Source: a virus. Taken from it: a DNA stretch of 18,456 nt. Below, piece after piece: positions 2,376 through 15,262 of the stretch. A model generated the notes under the pieces. That model was not told the DNA's origin. It was given only the letters and a program-made list of their open reading frames with translations, and did no database searches. A program made the translations under genes and the position numbers. The stretch is taken from UHGV virus genome UHGV-0102749. One strand, given 5' to 3'. Positions within the stretch are counted from its first letter, which is position 1. Every line of letters begins with the position of its first letter.

Positions 2376-3176
2376 TTAACCGCGCTTTGCCTTCTGCGTC
2401 GCGGTGGTTTTTCGTGTTGCAGGCTTCTGCGTTGTCTTTTTACTTTTGCTGCTTTCGTCCTGCGTCTGCTGTGCGCTGGCGTCTTCTGGTGCGGCTGCGG
2501 AATCGGCTTTTTTCAGGGCGCGGGAAAGGGTTGCAATCTCGCGTTTCACACCTGCGTTCGGGTTCAGGTGCATCGCTTCGCGCAGCAGCTTCAGTGATGA
2601 GGCCATGTTGTCTGCATCGGTCAGGCCACGACGGGCAAAGGCACACGCCTTGCATAATTTGGCGCGCACTTCGTCCGGCATGTCCTGGTTGGCGACAATT
2701 TCCCAAAGTGTGTCCAGTGGTTCGATAAAGGCGGATAAATCCGCGTCGGCATCCGTCCCGGCCTGCGTCAGTACCGGGTTGCAGATTTCTTCGGTCAGTA
2801 CCGTGGCAGCAGTACGGCCAAAGTTATCCGGCATGATGAGGTTGTGACGGACCACATATGCACCAATACGCAGCGCCAGCGGAAGATCGCCGCAGTCAAT
2901 CGCCCACACCATCAGCGTGGCAATTACTTCGTCCTGTTGCCCGCCGTCAGTCTCCAGCGTTCCCTCAATCCAGCCGGAAAAGTCCGGCAACAACTCTTTT
3001 TTGATGGCGGCTTTCGCGCTTCTGGCCTGTACGCCCTTTAGCCTGGCCTGTGCCAGACGCAGACGATACAGCACCTCTTCATGCGCGGTACGCGCGGCGT
3101 GGTCCACACCTTCATTCGCCCGGCCTGCGCGCTGTGCCATCACGTTCTGCCAGTGTTGTTGTGCAGGAGTAATCAT
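2376..3176 (-). CDS. M: Terminase small (endonuclease) subunit, P2 gpM position
   Basis: 266 aa ORF between gpN and gpL; SD GGAGAG; basic Lys/Thr-rich C-terminal tail. Called from synteny and size. Confidence 0.65.
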   Translation of the reverse strand: MITPAQQHWQNVMAQRAGRANEGVDHAARTAHEEVLYRLRLAQARLKGVQARSAKAAIKKELLPDFSGWIEGTLETDGGQQDEVIATLMVWAIDCGDLPLALRIGAYVVRHNLIMPDNFGRTAATVLTEEICNPVLTQAGTDADADLSAFIEPLDTLWEIVANQDMPDEVRAKLCKACAFARRGLTDADNMASSLKLLREAMHLNPNAGVKREIATLSRALKKADSAAAPEDASAQQTQDESSKSKKTTQKPATRKTTATQKAKRG

Positions 3177-3221
3177 TTTTTCTCTCCGTTACAGGCGGGC
3201 ATGATGCCCGCCGTGAGTTGA

Positions 3222-4274
3222 TTAGCTGTCGGCGAACTTCAGGCCAGTGATCATCGCGCACTTGCCATAGTCTTCAACGACATAAGCGTCATTGATGGAC
3301 TGGTAGGTGGCGATGCGGTTGTATTCCGGCTCGTCTTTCATCAGGCGACGCATTGAACCTTTCTGCCAGTAAATCGACAGGTTGTTGAACGAGGTGATAA
3401 GCATCGTTGCATCCGGGAAGAACGGCGCAAGGAACACGCCCAGCCCGCCAATGGTGCGCGATGACAGGATGAGCTGCCCGGCAAGTAATTCCGCATTGGG
3501 ATTCTGGCCGCTGATGCTGTTCAGCACGGGCAGACGCAGCGAGTTAAACAGGTTGCGCCCCATAATCACCGCGAGGTCGTCAGCTTCCTTGTGCCATTCA
3601 TCCAGCAGGGATGAGCGCGCATCCTGTACCAGAGCATCGGCATTCGCATACTTACCCACGTGCGCCACAGTGTTGTCCATGTTGCGGGAGGTCAGCGTCA
3701 CGTCATTCATTACGCGCTCGCTGGCATCGGTTCTGATGTGCTCCAGCCAGCCCACGTTAACGTCCTGAAGCAGCTTGTTGGTGTGAAAATCAGACTCGTA
3801 GGCGTGGGATGTGCCGTTAAAGCCAATCATGATGCGATCAAGCGCTACCTGCCGGGCGATCTGTGTACTGATACGGGACTGAAAATCGCTGTGGGCCGCC
3901 CAGGTATCAAGCTGTGGGTACGAAATAAAGGTATCGTAGTTCACCTGTTCGCACTGGTACTGACGAGACTTCATATCGATCACGTTATTCGGGTTACGGC
4001 GTTTGATGCCGTCATAACTGCTATTCGTGCGCGCAATTGGCCCGGTGGTGTCCAGGAGGATTTTTTCGCCTTTCTGGTCGGTCACGCCGATCACGTTAAT
4101 TCTTTTCGTAAATTCGGTACTTTCCTTTGAGGCGTTTTCAAAACGCTGCTGCACCGCGGGTTCCACGGTAAATCGCGATACCAGTGCAGATACCGGGATA
4201 TTGTTAAGCGACGCCTGCTGCGCCATATAGCAACCCAGCTTGTTGCGGGTAATATCTGACATCACCAGATTCAT
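3222..4274 (-). CDS. N: Major capsid protein, P2 gpN homologue
   Basis: 350 aa; blocks FTVEP, IMIGFNGT, VGWL, YVVEDY and LITSFNNLSIYW match P2 gpN; SD AAGGAG before ATG 4274. Confidence 0.9.
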   Translation of the reverse strand: MNLVMSDITRNKLGCYMAQQASLNNIPVSALVSRFTVEPAVQQRFENASKESTEFTKRINVIGVTDQKGEKILLDTTGPIARTNSSYDGIKRRNPNNVIDMKSRQYQCEQVNYDTFISYPQLDTWAAHSDFQSRISTQIARQVALDRIMIGFNGTSHAYESDFHTNKLLQDVNVGWLEHIRTDASERVMNDVTLTSRNMDNTVAHVGKYANADALVQDARSSLLDEWHKEADDLAVIMGRNLFNSLRLPVLNSISGQNPNAELLAGQLILSSRTIGGLGVFLAPFFPDATMLITSFNNLSIYWQKGSMRRLMKDEPEYNRIATYQSINDAYVVEDYGKCAMITGLKFADS

Positions 4275-4297
4275 AAAAAATTTGCTCCTTTGTCTTA

Positions 4298-5134
4298 TCA
4301 GAAGTCAGCCAGCTGGTCGGAGGCTGCGCCCGTTGCGGTGAAGCGGTTCTGCGGATCGCCGTCCTGCGTGCGCAGTTTTTCCTTCAATGCTGTCAGCTCT
4401 GTGGTCAGTGACGTGATTTTCTGGCGGTCCTGCTGATGGCGGGTTTCCAGCACATTAAAACGGTCGATAATGTCGGCCTGTGACGTTGCAACGCCTTCCA
4501 CCGCTTCCTGAATTCGGGAGAAACTGGCGTCATCCGCTTTGCGGCCACGACCAATAATCCCCATTACGCGGTTAAACCACTGGGTGCCTTCTTCCTGGCG
4601 TTGTTCTGCCATTTCGATGATTTCAGACTCGATGGCTTCGGAGATAAGCGGTGCTTCACCCTGGATACTGTTGAACGTCATCACCGCCTGACGTTGCTGT
4701 GCCGTGAATTTCAGGCGCTCAGTGCCCAGGCTTGCCGGGGTGTCGGTCATCGCCAGCCCGACCAGATAGGCGCGCCCGTTAACGGAGAACTGCGGGTGCA
4801 GTTCGATACTGGAATAGATTTTCTTGCCGTCCGCGACAAGCTGCTTCATGCGTTCGGTAGGTTCGATTTCTGCATACAGCGCAGTACGTCCGGCCAGCGG
4901 ACCTTCCGTAATGTCTTCCGTACTCAGTGCGGTGACATCGCCCATTGCGGAAAATTCGCTTGACGGGCATGGCGAGAGATAGTGCTCAACGTTCACACGG
5001 GCAGCGTAAACATCCGGGTTGAAGTTCTCGGCGGCTTCACGCAGATGCACCGGGCTGATTTCGCGGCCATCAACAGTTGATCCGGAGACAGCCACGCGAA
5101 ACTTTTTGCGGGATGTCTTTTTTTCATTAGCCAT
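4298..5134 (-). CDS. O: Capsid scaffolding protein, P2 gpO homologue
   Basis: FRVAVSGSTVDGREISPVHL and YLVGLAMTDTPASLGTE match P2 gpO (FRIGVEGDTCDGRVIS…, YLVGLAVTDDPASLGTE). Start taken at ATG 5134 (SD GAGGGG); the ORF track extends to 5167. Confidence 0.85.
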   Translation of the reverse strand: MANEKKTSRKKFRVAVSGSTVDGREISPVHLREAAENFNPDVYAARVNVEHYLSPCPSSEFSAMGDVTALSTEDITEGPLAGRTALYAEIEPTERMKQLVADGKKIYSSIELHPQFSVNGRAYLVGLAMTDTPASLGTERLKFTAQQRQAVMTFNSIQGEAPLISEAIESEIIEMAEQRQEEGTQWFNRVMGIIGRGRKADDASFSRIQEAVEGVATSQADIIDRFNVLETRHQQDRQKITSLTTELTALKEKLRTQDGDPQNRFTATGAASDQLADF

Positions 5135-5288
5135 AGTTTTTGCCCCTCTGACTGGTTCTTCAGTCATGATGGCAAAGCGTAACAGGCTGATACAAAGGGC
5201 TTTTGTTGTAAGAAAACGGCCAGAACAGGGGGTTAAGGAGAACGGTTTCGCGCGCGGGTAATCTTCCTGTAATTACTCAGGGGGAGCA
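5135..5288. promoter_or_regulatory. Divergent late-promoter region between O and P operons; contains dyad ACAAA-N5-TTTGT near 5192..5206
   Basis: Intergenic region between divergent gene starts. P2 late promoters here are Ogr-dependent and carry a dyad element; an imperfect dyad is visible, but no exact promoter was mapped. Confidence 0.35.
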
Positions 5289-7040
5289 ATGATTCAGGAC
5301 GCTTTTGTGCGCCAGCGTGCGCGGCAACTTTACTGGCAGGGTTATCCGCCCGCAGAAATATCACGTCTGATGGGAATAAACCCGAACACGATTTATGCGT
5401 GGAAAAAACGCGACCAGTGGGATGAAACGCCACCCGTGCAGCGTGTCACGCAATCCATCGATGCGCGCCTCATCCAGCTTACTGAAAAACAGAATAAAAC
5501 AGGCGGTGACTTTAAGGAAATAGACCTGCTGACCCGGCAGCTTAAAAAGCTGCATGATGGCCAGCCGGATGTGATGGCCGCAGGAAAGAAAGGCCGGGCG
5601 AAAAAACTCAAAAATCATTTCACGCCGGAACAGATTGCCGCACTGCGGGAAAAAATCATCAGCAGGCTGGAGTGGCATCAGCGAGGCTGGTTTGACTCCC
5701 TGACCCTTTGCAGGGAAGCCGGGATACGTAACAGGATGATCCTGAAATCCCGACAGATTGGGGCGACCTGGTATTTTGCGCAGGAAGCGCTGCTGATGGC
5801 GCTGCGTGACGATGTGGCGCAACCTTACCAGCGTAACCAGATTTTTTTGTCTGCGTCGCGTCGTCAGGCGTTCCAGTTTAAAAGCATTATTCAGAAGGCC
5901 GCGGCTGAAGTTGATGTGGAGCTGAAAGGGGGCGATAAAATCATCCTCTCCAACGGCGCAGAGCTGCATTTTCTCGGCACTTCTGCTGCGTCGGCACAGT
6001 CCTATACGGGCAATTTTTATTTTGATGAATTTTTCTGGGTCAGTCGCTTTGCTGAACTGCGCAAGGTGGCTGGCGCGATGGCAACCCTCAGCGGACTGCG
6101 GCGCACCTACTTCTCCACGCCATCCACCGAAACGCACGAGGCATACGCCTACTGGAACGGCGACCGCTGGAATGAGAAAAAGGCCACGCATAAACGCCAG
6201 CGTTTTTCTGTGGACTGGAAAACGCTGCATAACGGGCTTATCTGTCCTGACCGGACGTGGCGGCAAATTGTCACGCTGGAAGATGTGGTTAATCACGGCT
6301 GGAAACACACCGATATCGACGAAATTCGTGATGAAAACACCGAAGACGAGTTCCGCAATCTCTATATGTGTGAGTTTGTCCGCGAAGGGGAATCGGCATT
6401 TAACCTGAATATCCTGATTGGCTGCGGCGTTGACGGGTACGACGACTGGAAAGACTGGAAACCTTTTGCTCCCCGCCCGATGGGGAATCGTCCGGTATGG
6501 ATTGGGTATGACGCAAACGGCAGCAGCGGCAACGGCGACAGCGGCGCTGTGTCCGTGGTGGTTCCTCCGGCTGTGCCTGGTGGCCGTTTTCGAACGGTGG
6601 AGACGCGACGCGTTCAGGGGCTGGAGTTTGAAGAACAGGCCAGAGTCATTGAAGAGTTCACGTATCGCTACAACGTGGAACACATCGGCATTGATGTGAC
6701 GGGCGGGAACGGGGAGGCTGTTTATCAGATAGTGAAACGGTTTTTCCCTGCTGCTATTCCGTACACCTTCACGCTGTCATCAAAACGGTCGCTGGTACTG
6801 AAAATGCTGCAAATAATGCGTGCCGGGCGGTGGGAATACGATCGCGCCGAACGCGAGCTGGTCGCGGCCTTTAACGCCGTGCGTAAGGTGAAAACACCGG
6901 GCGGCTTTATCACTTACGAAACGGACCGTGCGAGGGGGATCAGCCACGGCGACCTTGCGTGGGCAACCATGCTTGCTGTCATTAACGAACCGATTGGCGG
7001 CGAAGGAGAAAACGAGCGTTTCACGGTTATGGAGTTCTGA
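5289..7040 (+). CDS. P: Terminase large (ATPase) subunit, P2 gpP position
   Basis: 583 aa (P2 gpP is ~590 aa as I recall); SD GGGGAG; divergent from the capsid operon and one-base-coupled to the portal gene (TGATG). Confidence 0.85.
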   Translation: MIQDAFVRQRARQLYWQGYPPAEISRLMGINPNTIYAWKKRDQWDETPPVQRVTQSIDARLIQLTEKQNKTGGDFKEIDLLTRQLKKLHDGQPDVMAAGKKGRAKKLKNHFTPEQIAALREKIISRLEWHQRGWFDSLTLCREAGIRNRMILKSRQIGATWYFAQEALLMALRDDVAQPYQRNQIFLSASRRQAFQFKSIIQKAAAEVDVELKGGDKIILSNGAELHFLGTSAASAQSYTGNFYFDEFFWVSRFAELRKVAGAMATLSGLRRTYFSTPSTETHEAYAYWNGDRWNEKKATHKRQRFSVDWKTLHNGLICPDRTWRQIVTLEDVVNHGWKHTDIDEIRDENTEDEFRNLYMCEFVREGESAFNLNILIGCGVDGYDDWKDWKPFAPRPMGNRPVWIGYDANGSSGNGDSGAVSVVVPPAVPGGRFRTVETRRVQGLEFEEQARVIEEFTYRYNVEHIGIDVTGGNGEAVYQIVKRFFPAAIPYTFTLSSKRSLVLKMLQIMRAGRWEYDRAERELVAAFNAVRKVKTPGGFITYETDRARGISHGDLAWATMLAVINEPIGGEGENERFTVMEF

Positions 7041-8086
7041 TGAGCAGAAAAAATAAAAAAGTGCGCATGAGTTCACGCATTGATCTCGCTGATGCGCTCA
7101 GGAAAGAATCATCGCTCAGTGCATTCACATTTGATGGTCCTTATCGCCTGACCGGGCATGACCTGCTGGACAATATGTACTGTGCTGATAACGGGCGGTG
7201 GTATGAAACCCCGGTAGACTGGTACGGTCTGGCAAGAGCTGCCCGGCAAACGTCCTGGCATCAGTCTGCGCTTTACTTTAAGCGCAATGTATTACTCGGT
7301 TGCTACATCCCGCACCCGCTGCTTTCCCGGCAGGATTTCTCGGCGCTGGCGCTGGACTGGTTTGTGTTCGGTAATGCATTCCTTGAGCTTCGAAGCAATA
7401 TGCTCGGCGAACCGCTTAAATTACGGCACGCCCTGGCGAAATACATGCGACGCGGAAGCGATCTTGAATCATGGTGGTATGTGCAGGATGGTAAGGACGC
7501 GTTTCAGTTTCGCCCTGGCAAAGTGTGCCACCTGATGAATCCGGATATTAACCAGGAAATCTACGGCATGCCGGAATATCTCGGCGCATTACTCTCGGCC
7601 AGCCTGTCTCATTCGGCGGACATGTTCAGAAAACTGTACTACGACAACGGATCCCACGCCGGGTGCATCATCTACATCGGTGCAGCGCAGGTAAACCGCG
7701 AAAGCATGGACTCCCTGAAAGAAACGCTACAGGGGGCACGTGGTGGTGGTGCGTTTAAAAACGTGCTCATTCATGCGCCCAACGGGGGCAAAGAGGGGGT
7801 GCAAATTTTGCCGTTCCAGCAGATCACCGCAAAAGATGAATTCATGAATGTTAAGGCGGCATCCCGTGATGATGTGCTGGCTGCGCACCGCGTTCCGCCG
7901 CAACTGATGGGGGCGATGCCGGGCGAAAAAAGTGCGTTTGGCGATGTGGAGAAGGCAGCGCGGGTTTACGCAATTAACGAGCTGATGCCCGTCATGGAGG
8001 CTATGAAGCACATCAATGGCTGGCTTGGCGAAGAGGTGATCCGTTTTAACTCTTATGCTCTTCTTGATGAAAAAACAGCCCCGTGA
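7040..8086 (+). CDS. Q: Portal protein, P2 gpQ position
   Basis: 348 aa (P2 gpQ ~344 aa); directly follows the terminase ATPase gene as in P2. Confidence 0.8.
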   Translation: MSRKNKKVRMSSRIDLADALRKESSLSAFTFDGPYRLTGHDLLDNMYCADNGRWYETPVDWYGLARAARQTSWHQSALYFKRNVLLGCYIPHPLLSRQDFSALALDWFVFGNAFLELRSNMLGEPLKLRHALAKYMRRGSDLESWWYVQDGKDAFQFRPGKVCHLMNPDINQEIYGMPEYLGALLSASLSHSADMFRKLYYDNGSHAGCIIYIGAAQVNRESMDSLKETLQGARGGGAFKNVLIHAPNGGKEGVQILPFQQITAKDEFMNVKAASRDDVLAAHRVPPQLMGAMPGEKSAFGDVEKAARVYAINELMPVMEAMKHINGWLGEEVIRFNSYALLDEKTAP

Positions 8087-8102
8087 TGGGGCTGTCCTTT
8101 TT
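8075..8102. terminator. Bidirectional intrinsic terminator shared by convergent genes Q and 8101..8625
   Basis: Stem ACAGCCCC (8075..8082) / GGGGCTGT (8088..8095), 5-nt loop, then CCTTTTT on the plus strand and an A-run (T-run on minus) on the other side. The Q stop codon lies in the loop. Confidence 0.6.
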
Positions 8103-8625
8103 ACCAGAGTTGAACCATTTTCTGGGTGCCGTCAGGCTTGAGATTATCAATTTCAGAGAGAACGTAATATTGAATGGCTTCACAAACGGTGGTGTAGGGT
8201 GAATTACCTTCTTTAAGTGGCACGATATTATTATTAACGCGAACCTGTATTTCATCGTTATACATTGCGATCGAAACAGGAGTGTGCACGAACGCGACTT
8301 CGCCAGGTGTGTCGTCAACCACCGTTTCAATACTAAAAGTCAGTTTTCGCTCATCATTGCTGCCCCGTGCTTTGGGGGTAGCGGCAGGGATCTGGGATAA
8401 AGGCATTCTGCGAAATCCTTCGGCTGCTTCCAGTCCGCATGAAACGTAATGCTGGCGATTACCGTCGCTATCTGTCCAGGTCTGTGATGGCAGCTCCAGC
8501 GAGATTTCATAAGCATCAACAATGCCCTGGGCAAGGCGCACAAGCGGGGTCAGATCTTCATTGCGGCGAAAGCTCTCCTTTACCTGCTCCCGTTTTTCTC
8601 TTAACTGCTTGTAATTAATGACCAT
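8101..8625 (-). CDS. Hypothetical protein (orphan cargo gene, convergent on portal gene)
   Basis: 174 aa from ATG 8625 with SD GGAGG 7 nt upstream (MVINYKQLREKREQ…). I see no recognisable motif. GC content looks lower than the structural genes. Confidence 0.6.
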   Translation of the reverse strand: MVINYKQLREKREQVKESFRRNEDLTPLVRLAQGIVDAYEISLELPSQTWTDSDGNRQHYVSCGLEAAEGFRRMPLSQIPAATPKARGSNDERKLTFSIETVVDDTPGEVAFVHTPVSIAMYNDEIQVRVNNNIVPLKEGNSPYTTVCEAIQYYVLSEIDNLKPDGTQKMVQLW

Positions 8626-8724
8626 AAGACAGCCTCCATTGATTTCTTTGCTCGTATTTTGCACTTATGAAGTATGGTCGGCAAGGTGCCGTATCGCTGA
8701 CGCGCTTCGCTTGTCTGCTGCTTC

Positions 8725-8753
8725 GCCGGGGCATAAAAAATTTATGCCCCGGC
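8725..8753. repeat. Perfect 13-bp-stem inverted repeat GCCGGGGCATAAA-AAA-TTTATGCCCCGGC
   Basis: Read directly from the sequence; no U-tract on either side, so it is not a canonical terminator. Confidence 0.7.
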
Positions 8754-9030
8754 TCTCCAGCTCCTGTATCAATCAGATAATTTCACGACGCCTTCCAGTT
8801 TATCGCCACCATCGACGGTCAGACTCTTACGCAATTCCACCGCGTTGACTGTATGTTCTCGCTGCCTCAGTGCGATTTTGACGGCCTTACCTTTCACCCC
8901 ATCAAATCAAAAGCCCTCACGCCTTTTTCATGCTCAGCGTGAGAAATATGGCCATTCTGTTGTGTCTCTGCGACATCGTTCAGGGAATGCTATTTACCCC
9001 CTGAAACGCGGGCTGTTCCCCCGTCACCTG

Positions 9031-9054
9031 CGCGCAGAAAAAGCGCGTTTTTTT
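9031..9054 (+). terminator. Terminator-like hairpin CGCGC-AGAAAAA-GCGCG followed by T7
   Basis: GC stem plus TTTTTTT run on the plus strand, with no annotated upstream plus-strand gene; it may end a small transcript or insulate the cos region. Confidence 0.35.
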
Positions 9055-9124
9055 GTGCACGCACGGATCCCTGACGGATCCAGCCGCCACGCGGGCCAGA
9101 AGGGCAAAAATTCGTTCAAAAAAA

Positions 9125-9150
9125 TTGTGCAAATTTGTGCACTATTGTGC
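9125..9150. promoter_or_regulatory. Three direct TTGTGC repeats at exact 10-bp spacing upstream of the ATPase operon
   Basis: ATTGTGCAAATTTGTGCACTATTGTGCGC; hexamers at 9125, 9135 and 9145, about 90 bp upstream of ATG 9237. Confidence 0.4.
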
Positions 9151-9236
9151 GCTAAATCGAATCCCTGTATTGCTTACCAGCTCATTACATGTAAACTCAA
9201 CAGGTAGCAATATTTACTTCCAAAAGGTGGAACAAA

Positions 9237-10436
9237 ATGGCTTTTACAAAAATCAGAATCGATAATCTGTTTTGCTTTGAAAATAGCATCCTTGACTTAA
9301 GCTTCTCCAGACCCCCGATCAACAGCTCACTGGAAGGTGAGTACATTGATGGATTTGAAAAGTTCTACTTCAAAAAGGTTTGCATCGTTTCTGGTGCTAA
9401 TGCATCTGGTAAAACATCTCTTGGTCGCGTGATGCTTTCTGTGTTGCGTTTTCTCAGTAGTGGTGTTTTCAATCCAGAACCGTTAAAAATTACTGACAAA
9501 AGAAAACCTGCATATATAGAGGTTGACTTTTTCCAGAGTCATTTAAAATGTTTGTTTAGGGCAGGTGTCTGGCTTAGGGCTATGGATGAGTCTGTTGTTG
9601 TAGAAAAAATTGCAATGGCATCTGTTGATTTAAGAAGCTCGGAATCATGCGCAAAGACGACCAAAAGACTGGATGCTGTGTGGGATGCGCAAAAGTTTGA
9701 ATTAAATGGTCAAAATAGATTTTTTTCAACCGAAAACGCTAACTCAAAAGAATTTTCCCAATATTTAGAGGATTTGGACTTTGTTCTTGGTTGGCATTTC
9801 ATTCTATCTGAAAACCAAGAGAACACGGATAAAATATCACGAATTAAGAAGAATGTGCTTAATAGCATATTAAAAACCTTTGACAATACTGTTAAATCTG
9901 TCTCAGGACTCACTCTTAAAGATGATGAGGGAAAGGAGGATTTGCAGGGTTATTCAGTAGTCTTCAATAATGGAGATAGAGTTATTATTGATATGGAAGG
10001 TGATATAACAAATAAAGATAGACTGTCTCGTGGTACTTATGAGGCAGTAAAAATATCCCATCTCCTGTCAGGAGTGCTTGAAGATAAAATAGAAGAGCGA
10101 GAGTTCAATTTCCCTTGCAGTGGGGTATACTTTTTGGATGAGAAAATGGCCTTCACTCATACTGAATTAGAAAAAATGATGGTCACGCTGATTATATCTA
10201 AGCTTTGCAGATATGGTCAATTTATATACACCACACATAATTATGATATCTTGAGCTTAGATCTGCCTACGCATTCATATACTTTTACTAAAAAAGTAGA
10301 TGGTGTAACCACTTTTGTTGAAGCTACCACACATCATAAAAAGAATGATCGCAATCTTTTAAATAAAGTAAAAAATGACTGTTTTGCAACAATACCTGAC
10401 GTTTCATTAATCGAAGAGATGCTATTTGAGGATTGA
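9237..10436 (+). CDS. ABC/AAA_21-type ATPase (OLD/AbiL/PARIS-like ATPase component)
   Basis: 399 aa; SD AAAGGTGG. Walker A GANASGKTS, Walker B-like VYFLDE, H-loop-like TTHN near the C-terminus. Strongly AT-rich relative to the flanking phage genes. Confidence 0.8.
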   Translation: MAFTKIRIDNLFCFENSILDLSFSRPPINSSLEGEYIDGFEKFYFKKVCIVSGANASGKTSLGRVMLSVLRFLSSGVFNPEPLKITDKRKPAYIEVDFFQSHLKCLFRAGVWLRAMDESVVVEKIAMASVDLRSSESCAKTTKRLDAVWDAQKFELNGQNRFFSTENANSKEFSQYLEDLDFVLGWHFILSENQENTDKISRIKKNVLNSILKTFDNTVKSVSGLTLKDDEGKEDLQGYSVVFNNGDRVIIDMEGDITNKDRLSRGTYEAVKISHLLSGVLEDKIEEREFNFPCSGVYFLDEKMAFTHTELEKMMVTLIISKLCRYGQFIYTTHNYDILSLDLPTHSYTFTKKVDGVTTFVEATTHHKKNDRNLLNKVKNDCFATIPDVSLIEEMLFED

Positions 10437-10438
10437 TT

Positions 10439-10957
10439 ATGGCAGTTAAGAAATTTGCTATTATTCTTGTTGAGGGAGATACGGAAAAAGCATTGTTTCA
10501 GGATTTCAAAACATTGCTAGGCTATCCTATTAAGAAAATAGTAATTGCTAATTTATGGAATGTTAATATAAATAAATACATGCCAGCATTAACCGAAAAT
10601 AGCGAAATCATAGTGGTTTTTGATACGGATAGGATTGAGAATCTTGATAGATTTAAGAATAATCTCAATCTATTAAAGGCGAAAAAACACACAATCCACC
10701 TATTTCAACAAACAAGCAATTTTGAGGATGAGCTTGCCAATGCTTGTGGTGTAAGTAATAGAAAGTTGTATTCTTGTTTTTGCCCAAAGATCATCTCTGC
10801 AGATAACTTCAAGAATGAATTCATTGCGCTGCGCAACAGGATGATGAAATTAGATGGACTTGGACTAAATAAAACGTTGCTTTGGAGTAGAGGGATTATC
10901 CCCCAATTGAGAGATTATAATTTTCATGTTTCCTCTCATGATGATTATTTTTTATAA
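10439..10957 (+). CDS. Small RloB/DUF4435-like (Toprim-like) protein, partner of the ATPase
   Basis: ATG at 10439, 2 nt after the ATPase stop (the ORF-track start at 10433 is TTG); SD GAGGA. N-terminal AIILVEGDTEKALF resembles the conserved EGxxE block of RloB/OLD-type Toprim-like proteins, followed by an acidic VVFDTDR motif. AT-rich. Confidence 0.65.
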   Translation: MAVKKFAIILVEGDTEKALFQDFKTLLGYPIKKIVIANLWNVNINKYMPALTENSEIIVVFDTDRIENLDRFKNNLNLLKAKKHTIHLFQQTSNFEDELANACGVSNRKLYSCFCPKIISADNFKNEFIALRNRMMKLDGLGLNKTLLWSRGIIPQLRDYNFHVSSHDDYFL

Positions 10958-11087: not shown

Positions 11088-11399
11088 CTAATCGGGAAAT
11101 AACGCCCGGATATTTCCGGCCATCTGACTGGTTATCTGTGCGGTGGGGGCTGTCTGTAACATGTGGCGTTCTGCCCTGGTTTGTGTCACTGATAACGCCT
11201 CATCGTCAGCCCATGCAGCCAGTCGGTAAGCCTCTGCCGGATTCATTTTCAGAAGTGCCAGCCCGGCCAGAAAAGCCACGCGTTGGCCGCTTTTGCGGGC
11301 TTCTGGTGTAAGGCTGTCCAGCCAGGCGCATGCTTCGCCTTCGTTCTTGACGGCGGCTGGCTTCAGATAGAAACTTATCCGTCTGGTTGGAGTCGTCAT
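11088..11399 (-). CDS. parR: ParR-like centromere-binding protein
   Basis: 103 aa from ATG 11399, 5 nt after the parM stop. RRISFYLKP…ACAWLDSLTPEARKSGQRVAFLAGLAL aligns with plasmid R1 ParR as I recall it (RRTIAFKLNP…DTLDSIPQGERSRLNRAALTAGLAL). The ORF-track start at 11534 overlaps parM and is rejected. Confidence 0.7.
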   Translation of the reverse strand: MTTPTRRISFYLKPAAVKNEGEACAWLDSLTPEARKSGQRVAFLAGLALLKMNPAEAYRLAAWADDEALSVTQTRAERHMLQTAPTAQITSQMAGNIRALFPD

Positions 11400-11403
11400 T
11401 GGT

Positions 11404-12363
11404 TTACTCCTTGTCCATTGCGTACAGCCCATTAACCAGAGCAAACTGTGGCACCCCGTCCGCGATGAAAGTCGCATTAACTCCGCAGGCTTCGCGGATA
11501 GCGGGTGCCACAATCTCCGCCCCTCCACCGACAACCATCACCCGCCCGTAACCCGAAAAACCCGCCAGCGCGCGGATCACGCGTTGTTTCAGTGTTTCTT
11601 CCTTTTCACGAATAACCGCCATCAGGCTGGCGTAATGCGCGTCATTGTGGATGTGCTGGCGCAGCCAGGCTTCATCATGGCGATGTTCGATAATGGTATT
11701 GGCGATGTGGTGACTGGTGCGCATACCGTTAGTGGCCATCACCGACAGTACGGCATCGGCCATCAGAGAAACGCCTACGTGTGGATCGCAAAACACCTGG
11801 CTGATACCTGCCAGTTGCCCCTGAACCTTTGCCACATCCAGCGTGGTTCCGCCCAAATCCACAATCAGCAGGGATTCAAACGGACTCATGTCAGCCAGTG
11901 CCTTAAAGCCTGCCGGAATGGATTCAGGCATAACCCGCACGTTACGGATAGTGAATGCCTCACCGTTCTGGTACTCCACCGGGCGCATGACGTTCGCTTT
12001 TTTGCGGTTGATGTTGGTCATATCCGGCTGTGCGTTTGTGTCGAAATACTCGCTCAGTGGCAGGGTGACAACCACATCCACCTCCTGTGGCGTGATGCCT
12101 GATTTGAGCAGCGCGTGATGAATGGCAATGACATTCACATCGCTGTACTGGTATTGCGTGTCGGTCGTCTGGACAAAGCGATCGCTGACCGGATCAAAAC
12201 CATAGCGCACGCCATCAAGCATGTAGTTCGCGGGCTGCGTGCCACCGAACGGCGCAGACCATTCCGACTTGAAGCTGTTCGGGCTGATGGCGTTGCGGCG
12301 TTCGCCGTTCTCAGTCCATGCCAGCTTGATGTTGGTGGAGCCGTCGTCGATACAAATTTTCAT
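11404..12363 (-). CDS. parM: ParM/StbA-family actin-like segregation ATPase
   Basis: 319 aa. MKICIDDGSTNIKLAW…SPNSFK…YQYSDVNVIAIHHALL…VMPESIPAG…LIVDLGGTTLD…VMVVGGGAE tracks R1 ParM block by block (phosphate-1 DDGSTN, connect/phosphate-2 DLGGTT, adenosine GGGAE); SD AAGGAA. Confidence 0.85.
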   Translation of the reverse strand: MKICIDDGSTNIKLAWTENGERRNAISPNSFKSEWSAPFGGTQPANYMLDGVRYGFDPVSDRFVQTTDTQYQYSDVNVIAIHHALLKSGITPQEVDVVVTLPLSEYFDTNAQPDMTNINRKKANVMRPVEYQNGEAFTIRNVRVMPESIPAGFKALADMSPFESLLIVDLGGTTLDVAKVQGQLAGISQVFCDPHVGVSLMADAVLSVMATNGMRTSHHIANTIIEHRHDEAWLRQHIHNDAHYASLMAVIREKEETLKQRVIRALAGFSGYGRVMVVGGGAEIVAPAIREACGVNATFIADGVPQFALVNGLYAMDKE

Positions 12364-12394: not shown

Positions 12395-12503
12395 TTTACG
12401 GGATTCTGAAATCCCGTTTTTGCCTGTTTTGTGCGCGCTTCATATATCGCTGCGCGTTTTTTGCTCATTTACGGGATTCGTGAGTCCCGTTTCTGTCTGT
12501 TTT
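12395..12503. repeat. Two ~36-bp direct repeats, each with an internal dyad (ACGGGATT…AATCCCGT) and a T-run, straddling the A stop codon upstream of parM
   Basis: Copy 1 (12395..12430) TTTACGGGATTCTGAAATCCCGTTTTTGCCTGTTTT; copy 2 (12468..12503) TTTACGGGATTCGTGAGTCCCGTTTCTGTCTGTTTT. Candidate parC-like centromere/operator or tandem terminator-like hairpins. Confidence 0.5.
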
Positions 12504-15262
12504 TTGTTTCCACTGGTCAGGCCACCCCGCAGCAGGTCTGCTTTGCGGCGGGCGCGTTCAGTGGTTTCACTGATTCTCTGTGCGTGCTCTGCGTCGCGGA
12601 TGGCGCGCAGCATGTCAGAAAGCACGGTAACGGGTGTTTTCATGGTGTTCTGGTCCTGCTGAAGTGTGGATGCCAGGCGTGCGGCGGCTTCAGGGTCTGA
12701 TGCCCCCAGCTGTGCCAGATAGCTGGCGACCGGGTTATGGCGGATCTCCGTGCTGCTTACGCCGTGATTACGGCTCAGGCGCTGCCAGAGCTGCGTGATT
12801 CGGCTGTCCGGGCGGGTATCCGGTTTGCGTACAATTTCAAATCCCTGCGGTGAAATGATGCTGCCGTCAACGTACAGACTGCCGCCCCGTAACAGGTGCT
12901 GCATCTGCTGTTCACCAATATGCAGGCCGAGAGATTCAGCAGACTCCCGCCATTCTTTAGCGAGTAATTCGTGGTTATCAGGCAAAGGCCGCTGCTGTTT
13001 GCGGCTCTGTGTCCAGCTCTGCATTTCATCACTGCTGTTTTTTGCCTGTTTGTCACGCAGCGAACGCATCAGCGCCCGGCGTTCGTGCCGTTTCAGTGAG
13101 CGCATCCATTCATCCACATCAACGCCGTCAGGAAGCTGCGGCCACGGTGCTGGCCGTTCTTCCGGCTGTTCTGTCCCGTTGTTGTCCGTTTCCTGTACAC
13201 GGGGACAGTTATTGCCACGAGTCCAAGGGGCGGCAGGGCCGCCCTGAAGGTCAAAACCATTTTCGCGGGCGCTGTCTTCCGCTTCCGGTTTACGTCTTAT
13301 CAGCTTCCAGTTATCCGGATGTGTGCACACACGGGAAGACTCCCCGATGAGTGGTGACCAGATCCCGTAAATCTGTACGCTCTGTTCGCCGTAATCGTTC
13401 GGCTCATCTGCGAGGTCGTAGGCGGTGCGAATCAGGTAGTCTTTGCGTGGAACAAGTACGCCGCCCTGTTTTTCAATGTAGGAGGCAAAACACCCGGCAT
13501 CAGCGGCAGCGAGCACTGCATCCATTGCGTCATCCTTCAGCCGTTGCGGGCCTTCCGGGTTGCGTGCCATCTGGTTGGCAAGGCGGCGCAGTTCACGCCA
13601 CACCTGACGGGAGGGGATGCCAAAGAACTGGAACTGGCGGACCCGGTGAAGGCGCGCCCAGCCGATGGCGCGCTCCACGCTCTCGGCCATTGATTTTCCG
13701 GTTTCGTGGTCAACGCGTGGCTTGCCCGTTTTCGGGTCGATACCATCCACGGCGCGGCTGTCCAGGTTCTTTCCGATGTAGGTGGCGATGTAGCTGGTTG
13801 GCGTGCCTTTTGAGCCGTCGACATACTCCACCTTAAAGCGCGGAGTAATATCATTGCCCAGCTCGTGGCGGTCTTCCTGAATGGCAATATCGCGGGTATG
13901 GGACACAATGGTGTCGATTTCTTCCGGATGTGCAAAGACCATCATATGCCAGTGCACGGTGCCGTCATGATGAGGCTCCACCGTGCGGATGCCATACCAG
14001 CGCAGGCCGTCGCGGTTCAGTTTTTTGCGGACCGCCGCAAAAAACGTGTTAACCAGGTAATCGCTGGAGTCGCGCATTGTGGCCCCGTTCCATTTGGGAT
14101 TTGGATGACCGTTCTCCGTTGTGGCGTGGTATTTTGACGGGCAGGTGACAGTCAGAAACACCGCTTTGTCGCCACGGGCTTCGGCCAGAAGTTCCAGCCC
14201 CTTCATGGTGGCCATCATTTCTGCCTTACGGTGAACCGGGTTACTTACTCCCGCGTAATACACCGTCTCGAGATCAATCGTGAACCCGTCTTCATTTTCC
14301 AGCATGAAACTTTTCAGGAAATCGCGTGTTTTCTCGCGCTGTGCGCGAAACTCGCTTAACGCGTCCTGGCTCAGATAGGGTGATGTTTTTCTGGAAACCA
14401 GACAGGCGGCGCGGAGTTGTTCTTCCCGCCACTCGCAACGTAACAGCCACAGTTTGCGTTTCCACCATTCCGCACAGGTCAGGCGAAGGATTGCGCCCGG
14501 CAGCAGCTCCGTGTCCGGTTCGTTCCTCCGGTCTTTGTCTGTTGTCAGAGCGTCATAATGTGGAGGCATGGCGTGCAGGTGTAACGCCATGCGGGCCAGC
14601 ATCTGATACGCCTTCAGCGTTACATCCATGGTCAGCTCGCCATCGGTCGCGCCAAAGCCATCGCAGAGTTTTTCAAAAGTGCCACTGAACATCGCCGCCG
14701 TCATGGTGGCCAGCGTCTGTATCTGGTGTTTGTTGAGCTGCGGCAGGTAAAGCAAATCGTCCAGGCGTTCGCGTCCGGCAAGGGAGCGATAACCCGGTGT
14801 CAGCCAGCGGTGATCGGTGCGCTCCAGACGTTCGAATATTTTGCGCAGGGTCCCACGCGCATAGCGTTCTGCCTGCCTGGCGTTTTTTCCTTTCTGACGA
14901 TCGGCTTCCTGTTTTTTGCGCAGGAAGGAGAGGTGGCGAATAAGCGGATCGCGCAGATAGGACGGCAGCAGGCGCAGCGAGGCCATGGCTTCATCCACCG
15001 CGCCGCGTGCCTGTTTTCTGGCGTCTCCTGCCAGTGTGATGGTTTTGTCCTGTTTTTCCTGTGCGTCCAGGCTTTTATTAATCAGGTTGCCCAGCGGCGT
15101 GGCGGAGAACGCCGCATCAGCCATTTCCTGGCGGCGCTCGTTCTCTGCCCGGTAGGCATCCAGCCAGGAGGAAAGCGCGGATTCAGGAGCGGGGATCCCC
15201 GTTCCTTCACGCCCCACTGCGTGGCGCGGTTGTTGCCAGTCCCTGATGTACTCTGCCGTCAT
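12440..15262 (-). CDS. A: Rolling-circle replication initiator, P2 gpA-like (HUH endonuclease)
   Basis: 940 aa. HUH motif VHWHMMVF and paired catalytic tyrosines in SYIATYIGKNLD (YxxxY), as in P2 A. Last gene of the leftward early operon. Confidence 0.8.
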   Translation of the reverse strand: MTAEYIRDWQQPRHAVGREGTGIPAPESALSSWLDAYRAENERRQEMADAAFSATPLGNLINKSLDAQEKQDKTITLAGDARKQARGAVDEAMASLRLLPSYLRDPLIRHLSFLRKKQEADRQKGKNARQAERYARGTLRKIFERLERTDHRWLTPGYRSLAGRERLDDLLYLPQLNKHQIQTLATMTAAMFSGTFEKLCDGFGATDGELTMDVTLKAYQMLARMALHLHAMPPHYDALTTDKDRRNEPDTELLPGAILRLTCAEWWKRKLWLLRCEWREEQLRAACLVSRKTSPYLSQDALSEFRAQREKTRDFLKSFMLENEDGFTIDLETVYYAGVSNPVHRKAEMMATMKGLELLAEARGDKAVFLTVTCPSKYHATTENGHPNPKWNGATMRDSSDYLVNTFFAAVRKKLNRDGLRWYGIRTVEPHHDGTVHWHMMVFAHPEEIDTIVSHTRDIAIQEDRHELGNDITPRFKVEYVDGSKGTPTSYIATYIGKNLDSRAVDGIDPKTGKPRVDHETGKSMAESVERAIGWARLHRVRQFQFFGIPSRQVWRELRRLANQMARNPEGPQRLKDDAMDAVLAAADAGCFASYIEKQGGVLVPRKDYLIRTAYDLADEPNDYGEQSVQIYGIWSPLIGESSRVCTHPDNWKLIRRKPEAEDSARENGFDLQGGPAAPWTRGNNCPRVQETDNNGTEQPEERPAPWPQLPDGVDVDEWMRSLKRHERRALMRSLRDKQAKNSSDEMQSWTQSRKQQRPLPDNHELLAKEWRESAESLGLHIGEQQMQHLLRGGSLYVDGSIISPQGFEIVRKPDTRPDSRITQLWQRLSRNHGVSSTEIRHNPVASYLAQLGASDPEAAARLASTLQQDQNTMKTPVTVLSDMLRAIRDAEHAQRISETTERARRKADLLRGGLTSGNKKQTETGLTNPVNEQKTRSDI

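Follow-up and report, generated by a model that had tools for sequence, protein, structure and literature searches.

What is a lone gene of 174 codons doing at the very end of the portal gene of a P2-like prophage, transcribed against the late operon that it abuts? The question is raised by UHGV virus genome UHGV-0102749, analysed here as one stretch of 18,456 nucleotides (hereafter the window), which is a prophage of Escherichia coli belonging to the P2 family, P88 type, genus Xuanwuvirus. The gene (8101-8625, minus strand) is placed between portal gene Q and a conserved cos-proximal backbone (8697-9150) that sequence comparison finds to be common to P88-type phages. It is a self-contained moron inserted at the very 3' end of Q, and we consider it probable that its product, a member of the protein family PHROG 5091, is a lone, non-enzymatic conflict factor that works by binding another protein. 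The argument is built on the anatomy of the inserted cassette, its presence and absence among close relatives, the signature of purifying selection on its gene, the independence of that gene from neighbouring cargo, and the recurrence of the family in slots that are typical of morons.

The anatomy of the insertion is best seen against P88 itself, one of 16 phage records that were recovered at 95–99% identity by a megablast search with positions 7000-9300. The alignment of P88 with the window breaks off after 8061 and resumes at 8697, ~21 bp of P88 sequence lying between the two parts, and the cassette that P88 lacks (8062-8696; G+C content (GC) 0.474) is therefore bounded by an exact right junction at 8696/8697 and a left junction within 8062-8074, giving a length of roughly 620–635 bp. 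Its contents are new last five codons for Q, a bidirectional terminator, a single open reading frame (ORF), a ribosome binding site (RBS) and a candidate promoter. As the last five codons of Q (8062-8086) were replaced, the portal proteins of carriers and non-carriers end differently, in EKTAP in the window (C-terminus LLDEKTAP) and in TQPTS in P88 (LLDTQPTS). Directly behind the stop codon of Q, P88 reads CGCGCTTCGC..., and 21 nt past that codon comes the start of a perfect palindrome, its stem 13 bp long. The same palindrome was identified in the window by folding and by comparison with P88 (GCCGGGGCATAAA / TTTATGCCCCGGC, 8725-8753; -24.7 and -26.7 kcal/mol, z about -6 to -7), with no T-run on either strand. 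Given its place in P88, it is probably the ancestral terminator hairpin of Q, which the cassette has shifted ~640 bp from the end of Q and which now lies upstream of the inserted gene.

Within the cassette, the ORF runs from an ATG at 8625-8623 to a stop codon at 8103-8101. An alternative GTG start at 8664 would yield a protein of 187 aa (13 extra residues), and the ATG is preferred because all homologues begin MVINY or MxITY. A GGAGG Shine-Dalgarno sequence (8633-8637, minus strand) lies 7 nt upstream of the ATG; the relatives from Salmonella and Trabulsiella retain GGAG. The 71 bp of cassette upstream of the ORF hold a candidate sigma-70 promoter (8656-8684, minus strand), with TTGCCG as the -35 element (8684-8679), a 17-nt spacer and CAAAAT as the -10 element (8661-8656), which could plausibly drive the 174-aa gene; the Salmonella cassette retains both hexamers and the 17-nt spacing (TTGTCT-17-CAAAAT), with a diverged spacer sequence. 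At the other end of the gene, a bidirectional intrinsic terminator (8070-8100, both strands) is common to Q and the 174-aa gene. Its G+C-rich core stem of 8 bp (ACAGCCCC/GGGGCUGU, 8075-8095) is flanked by an A-run and a U-run, the Q stop TGA (8084-8086) falls in the loop, and 5 nt separate the stem from the stop of the 174-aa gene. The folding energy is -17.4 kcal/mol for the plus strand (z = -4.0) and -21.3 kcal/mol for the minus strand (z = -5.5), values that none of 200 shuffles reached. A first-pass annotation, made from the letters of the window, had described a convergent gene set directly against the Q terminator, with a GGAGG ribosome binding site and a bidirectional hairpin shared with Q, and both parts of this description hold. 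It had also judged the gene to be somewhat richer in A+T than the structural genes, and the figures agree: GC is 0.476 and GC at third codon positions (GC3) 0.480, against 0.53–0.58 and 0.60–0.69, respectively, for M, N, O, P, Q, ParM and A. The 174-aa gene is compositionally foreign to the phage core genes.

Among related P2-like prophages the gene is an optional feature. It is carried by four of the 16 related phage records, carriers deposited as phages including vB_EcoM-569R5, vB_EcoM-705R2 and PhiR44_2, and is missing from P88 and 11 other records (seven phages, five deposited twice). On a larger scale, 403 chromosomal places in 397 of 5426 complete E. coli genomes (~7% of genomes) hold it, against 1206 places with a P88-type Q; about one third of P88-type prophages thus carry the cassette, and about two thirds do without. 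Nor is it a conserved P2 structural gene, because P88 lacks it, the interval between cosL and Q in P2 has no annotated gene and holds the tQ terminator alone, and no structural or packaging family was matched by the protein in Pfam or PHROG. The first-pass statement that Q of P2 ends close to cos was accurate, cosL of P2 being 168 bp from the Q end. Dispensable cargo, rather than a structural or packaging component of P2-like phages, is therefore the supported status of the gene.

Could it nonetheless encode an optional accessory of the virion or its assembly, such as a packaged internal protein, a decoration protein or an assembly chaperone? The company that the family keeps lends this some appeal, in that the portal gene is always its neighbour in P2-type phages, while E217-like phages have it within tail or baseplate modules and some lambdoid phages upstream of terminase. 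Against it, of the P88-type phages that are near-identical and share portal and capsid genes, two thirds manage without the protein, the gene is transcribed against the P-Q operon and has its own terminator, and the protein falls in no structural category of PHROG and matches no structure in BFVD, all of which makes such a role quite unlikely.

Whatever the gene does, it is being kept. At least 80% of the gene length is retained in 395 of the 397 carrier genomes, and the window allele differs from an O111 allele by 22 synonymous and seven non-synonymous substitutions, a ratio of non-synonymous to synonymous rates (dN/dS) of 0.08 that indicates purifying selection. Truncated copies do exist, in enterotoxigenic E. 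coli (ETEC) H10407 (74% coverage) and as small fragment clusters (P0011-P0019), and would be expected of a decaying or selfish, functionless remnant; that view is disfavoured to the point of being very improbable by the low dN/dS, by the length retained in nearly all carrier genomes, and by full-length homologues conserved down to ~22% identity across genera.

The gene is also kept in one place. In all 41 loci of IMG/VR with a close homologue, it adjoins and converges on a P2-type portal gene, whilst at least 18 classes of cargo are found beyond cos in 36 loci. Its link to Q is thus more stable than that of hotspot cargo, and because this linkage is constant while the cargo beyond cos varies, the 174-aa gene and its neighbours do not form a multi-gene system. 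The idea of a conserved upstream partner, in the form of a small divergent ORF, was likewise considered and rejected, as the small upstream ORFs of several family members are mutually unrelated.

The first-pass annotation regarded the gene as an orphan, and here it was wrong. The protein matches PHROG 5091 (described as of "unknown function") at E = 1.4e-67 and 227.5 bits, with residues 1-168 aligned to positions 1-164 of a 164-position profile, making it a full member, and the same family was matched by all 48 relatives scanned. An exhaustive profile search returned 89 representatives at the 50% cluster level, from several genera and phage types, mostly 155–175 aa long and aligned over their full length; the close relatives returned by a word-indexed search were confined to E. 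coli, Salmonella and Trabulsiella. The named sources are all Enterobacterales and include Xenorhabdus, Providencia, Morganella and an insect symbiont. With four to five of 50,697 GenBank phage records holding a member, this is in practice a family of prophages, and it has neither a Pfam or NCBIfam model nor a solved structure.

Relatives recur in a limited set of positions. In Salmonella (63% identity) and Morganella (23–24%), the gene occupies the same slot between Q and cos and converges on the portal gene. The Trabulsiella relative (46%) lies directly after gpA and is followed by HicB and Phd/Fic genes. Three relatives in lambdoid prophages (26–32%) are located between antiterminator Q and the lysis genes (holin), two others (28–32%) between lysis genes and terminase, and two relatives in E217-like myophages (23–33%) inside tail or baseplate modules. 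In one of the three prophages with the gene between Q and lysis genes, Q is followed by a pR'-like promoter and a tR'-like terminator, after which come the gene, a terminator and holin. This slot behind antiterminator Q, with pR' and tR', is the position of stx in Shiga toxin (Stx) phages. The locus (4608-5800 in its own coordinates) is resembled by two other lambdoid loci, and in each the gene has its own terminator before holin. More generally, a GC hairpin with a T-run follows soon after the stop codon in eight of the nine relatives read and in the window gene (nine of ten members); the Trabulsiella copy has none within 90 nt of its stop. In that prophage of Trabulsiella guamensis (6738-8053 of its locus), the homologue is followed by a 91-aa gene paired with HicB and then by a Phd/Fic toxin-antitoxin pair, in a hotspot that is dense in accessory genes.

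The relationships between these proteins do not follow their positions: the window protein is nearer to some lambdoid and myophage members (31–33% identity) than to the same-slot Morganella protein (24%), which suggests a history of repeated capture rather than simple vertical descent. Transfer between genera may also be recent. The allele in a genome labelled Salmonella enterica strain s1 (CP191473.1, 2580690-2589211) shares 97% identity with the E. coli protein, against the ~60–63% that is typical of Salmonella alleles, and this represents either a recent cross-genus prophage transfer or a mislabelled record.

Well-known morons include bor and lom of lambda, and stx. Like the morons of Hendrix and Juhala's concept, as summarised in PMC3573123, the 174-aa gene is a single gene that is present or absent among near-identical phages, with foreign composition, its own terminator and a candidate promoter. 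Its location fits equally well, since it falls in the interval between A (12440-15262, minus strand) and Q (7040-8086, plus strand) that has been termed 'moron position 1' of P2-like phages (PMC3573123), and its relatives fill the stx slot (Q-holin), the lysis-terminase slot and slots in tail modules.

The properties of the protein itself would suit a binding partner of some other protein. It has a mass of 19.8 kDa and a pI of 5.0, is acidic and soluble and contains no membrane-spanning segment; acidity is uniform across the family (median pI 5.15, 93% of members below 6). AlphaFold2 (AF2) predicted a pair of helices at the N-terminus, then an antiparallel sheet and finally a helix at the C-terminus, residues 83-89 or thereabouts forming a disordered loop (predicted local distance difference test score (pLDDT) 80, predicted template modelling score (pTM) 0.73), and a second run returned the same topology at pLDDT 78. 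Conserved positions are mostly aromatic and aliphatic residues of the core, together with S42, D52, T101, D104, D105 and K152, and because the core dominates, the protein is probably not an enzyme and probably acts by binding.

Searches for a known fold or domain support the first-pass remark that no motif could be recognised. Foldseek found nothing at E 0.001 or better in the PDB or BFVD, Pfam returned a chance LYR match alone (E 0.17), and neither NCBIfam nor PADLOC has a family for the protein. The same three resources, Pfam, NCBIfam and PADLOC, recognised none of the 48–82 relatives scanned, the PADLOC scan over 82 relatives giving three single matches at chance level. Matches to designed helical-repeat proteins in the PDB were dismissed as an artefact, as a hit at E 1.9e-10 with an 11-sequence profile was gone with a 48-sequence profile. 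These matches (E 1e-10 to 1e-6, to proteins designed de novo) ran through the C-terminal helix, and such thin profiles call for caution.

A further alternative is lysogenic conversion, in which the gene would alter the physiology or fitness of its host, for example in extraintestinal pathogenic E. coli (ExPEC) of sequence type 131 (ST131) or in O111 and O26 lineages. There is precedent in neaT, a moron of a P2-like prophage that promotes the fitness of strain CFT073 (PMC3573123), and the gene is highly prevalent: many human isolates, including one typed O25b:H4 (ST131 background), have nearly invariant copies (99.8% DNA identity), with O111, O26 and ETEC strains also among the carriers. Yet the product is cytoplasmic and lacks a signal peptide and membrane segments as well as any effector or enzyme domain that could be recognised, the prevalence of the gene may be largely clonal given that many carriers are near-identical, and its relatives are tied to late modules of phages rather than to host-interaction loci. 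We regard conversion as unlikely.

A more serious contender arises from the surroundings of the gene. The gpA-gpQ interval is also the cos-proximal anti-phage defence hotspot described by Rousset et al. in 2022 (PMC9122126), and the 174-aa gene shares it with old, tin and the systems of that study. The actual hotspot cargo of the present prophage is an AbiLi/AbiLii-like pair (9237-10436 and 10433-10957, plus strand; PADLOC E = 1.1e-27 and 6.2e-5), rich in A+T (GC 0.33–0.36, GC3 0.32–0.33). The pair consists of a 399-aa ATPase and a 174-aa partner with Toprim/GajA-like similarity, and lies on the A side of cos, where P2 has old and tin. The gene considered here differs from such cargo in its location on the Q side, rather than the A side, of cos and its fusion to the end of Q, in its more stable linkage and in matching no defence hidden Markov model. 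It has been listed before: in Table S5 of PMC9122126, WP_000236495, which is this very 174-aa protein, appears at least 167 times and WP_000236489 five times, as 'hypothetical' in hotspot arrangements. The arrangement with WP_000236495 is absent from the main text and from the table of tested systems in PMC9122126, a literature search by PHROG identifier, accessions and N-terminal peptide returned nothing beyond that Table S5, and the library searched yielded no account of an experiment on the gene.

A single-protein defence or exclusion gene, expressed in the lysogen from its own promoter and blocking competing phages, is a possible but less likely reading. The gene adjoins the AbiL-like pair and has its own candidate promoter and terminator, and its convergence on the late P-Q operon would make late read-through antisense to it. 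A 2026 survey reported a machine-learning defence signal for 15–32% of unknown P2 proteins (PMC13586616). A parallel is offered by Tai (tail assembly inhibition), a group of single-gene defence morons that includes TaiEcA, encoded by orf63 of phi80 (PMC11364771). Like PHROG 5091, Tai is a highly divergent single-gene family (22–43% identity) located for the most part at moron sites of prophages, near packaging modules, and in hotspots close to cos (PMC11364771), and Tai of phi80 is oriented against the late genes, as the 174-aa gene is against P-Q, an arrangement that resembles the logic of a non-contiguous operon described for Tai (PMC11364771). The likeness does not extend to the proteins: TaiEcA has 204 aa and does not align with the PHROG 5091 family, and the 174-aa protein is predicted to be alpha+beta. 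Membership of Tai was rejected after hhalign of the 82-sequence family profile against phi80 orf63 gave a probability of 0.07 and E 0.69 over 13 columns.

Several further findings count against a defence gene of this kind. Beyond chance level, PADLOC matches neither the protein nor its 82 relatives, the protein is unrelated to TaiEcA, and it stays with Q while the cargo across cos turns over. Lambdoid relatives located behind a pR'-like promoter and tR'-like terminator would be made late in lytic growth and not in the lysogen, and myophage relatives lie within tail operons in the same direction. The broader first-pass suggestion, that cargo at this genome end might serve exclusion, anti-defence or lysogenic conversion, therefore stands in part: the gene is dispensable, foreign, under selection and located in the A-Q hotspot, but no tie to a known defence or anti-defence family was found with PADLOC or by comparison with Tai.

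If not the lysogen, then perhaps the lytic cycle. As lambdoid and myophage relatives are co-oriented with late operons, a lysogen-expressed exclusion gene is not favoured over a lytic-phase function, to which this placement lends some weight. A counter-defence or anti-satellite factor, neutralising a defence protein of the host or a hijacking protein of P4 or of a phage-inducible chromosomal island (PICI), would suit the position of lambdoid and E217-like relatives in late operons and Stx-type late slots. It would suit the protein too, which is small, acidic, stand-alone and apparently non-enzymatic, as are many known inhibitors, and which diverges faster than neighbouring core genes (63% identity vs 75% for the portal protein in the comparison with Salmonella, 23% vs 47% in that with Morganella). 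P2-like phages serve as P4 helpers, and interactions with PICIs are known for lambdoid phages of the phi80/HK type (in part PMC11364771). Set against this, the gene lies outside any late or early operon in the P2-type slot, no target can be named, and no Ogr-type late promoter (TGT-N12-ACA) was found at the right distance. Such a promoter was rejected for the 174-aa gene, as the sole site between it and cos (8958-8975) lies ~330 bp upstream and the window as a whole holds three sites against 4.15 expected by chance. A counter-defence role in the lytic cycle is conceivable but somewhat doubtful. The same caution applies to the wider proposal that PHROG 5091 is a new stand-alone conflict family without a solved fold relative, expressed late in the lytic cycle and captured repeatedly and independently by P2-like, lambdoid and E217-like phages, which is tentative at best; an inhibitor of an abortive-infection sensor of the host, or of a P4 or PICI hijacking factor, may serve as examples of the roles that its members would play.

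The reading that we prefer is that of a self-contained moron for a lone, protein-binding conflict factor. The cassette, in which a single ORF with its RBS is accompanied by a candidate promoter and a bidirectional terminator, was inserted at the 3' end of Q in a P88-type prophage. Its product, an acidic, cytoplasmic protein of 174 aa with a predicted alpha+beta fold, is dispensable for virions and maintained intact by selection, and would act alone, with no partner gene, by binding or inhibiting another protein. The setting would be conflict between phages, between phage and satellite, or between phage and host. Four observations weigh against this explanation. Firstly, the candidate promoter has eight of 12 consensus matches, and a consensus scan with a threshold of nine of 12 made no call. 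Secondly, the AF2 runs were based on shallow alignments of 11 and 82 sequences, so that the fold is only moderately certain. Thirdly, the conserved polar residues leave a small chance of catalysis or ligand binding. Finally, one family member (31% identity) lies in an ordinary, apparently non-phage chromosomal context.

The remainder of the window is that of a P2-type phage with some local peculiarities. Genes M, N and O (2376-5167, minus strand) are followed by the terminase gene P (5289-7040, plus strand) and by Q, which encodes a portal protein of 348 aa, and replication gene A encodes 940 aa. The 19-nt cohesive end of P2 is not recognisable in the window, and the exact cos site of the P88 type could not be located by similarity to P2; by this comparison of sequences, the P88-type cos appears to differ from that of P2. 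The sole segment resembling P2 cosL is a weak match to P2 nt 19-35, just inside cosL, at roughly 9017-9037. A terminator-like hairpin with a T-run at 9030-9048 on the plus strand (region 9009-9060) overlaps this segment. Between gene A and the hotspot lie a ParM-like gene (11404-12363, minus strand) and a ParR/StbB-like gene (~11088-11400, minus strand). These ParM/ParR-type genes, labelled plasmid segregation proteins in RefSeq, are conserved across P88-type prophages, and plasmid-partition genes are unusual in an integrating phage of the P2 family.

What does the insertion mean for the prophages and bacteria that carry it? Nothing in the findings on the 174-aa gene would surprise a specialist, and if it were to prove devoid of phenotype, it would be one more uncharacterised moron. 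Nevertheless, it is present in ~7% of complete E. coli genomes, with clinically important lineages among the carriers, and sits in the best-known defence hotspot of P2-like prophages. Its stable linkage to the portal gene and the recurrence of its family in late-gene slots make it a well-defined and cheap target for a defence or anti-defence screen, and a host acquiring this variant of the prophage would gain or lose whatever the protein brings.
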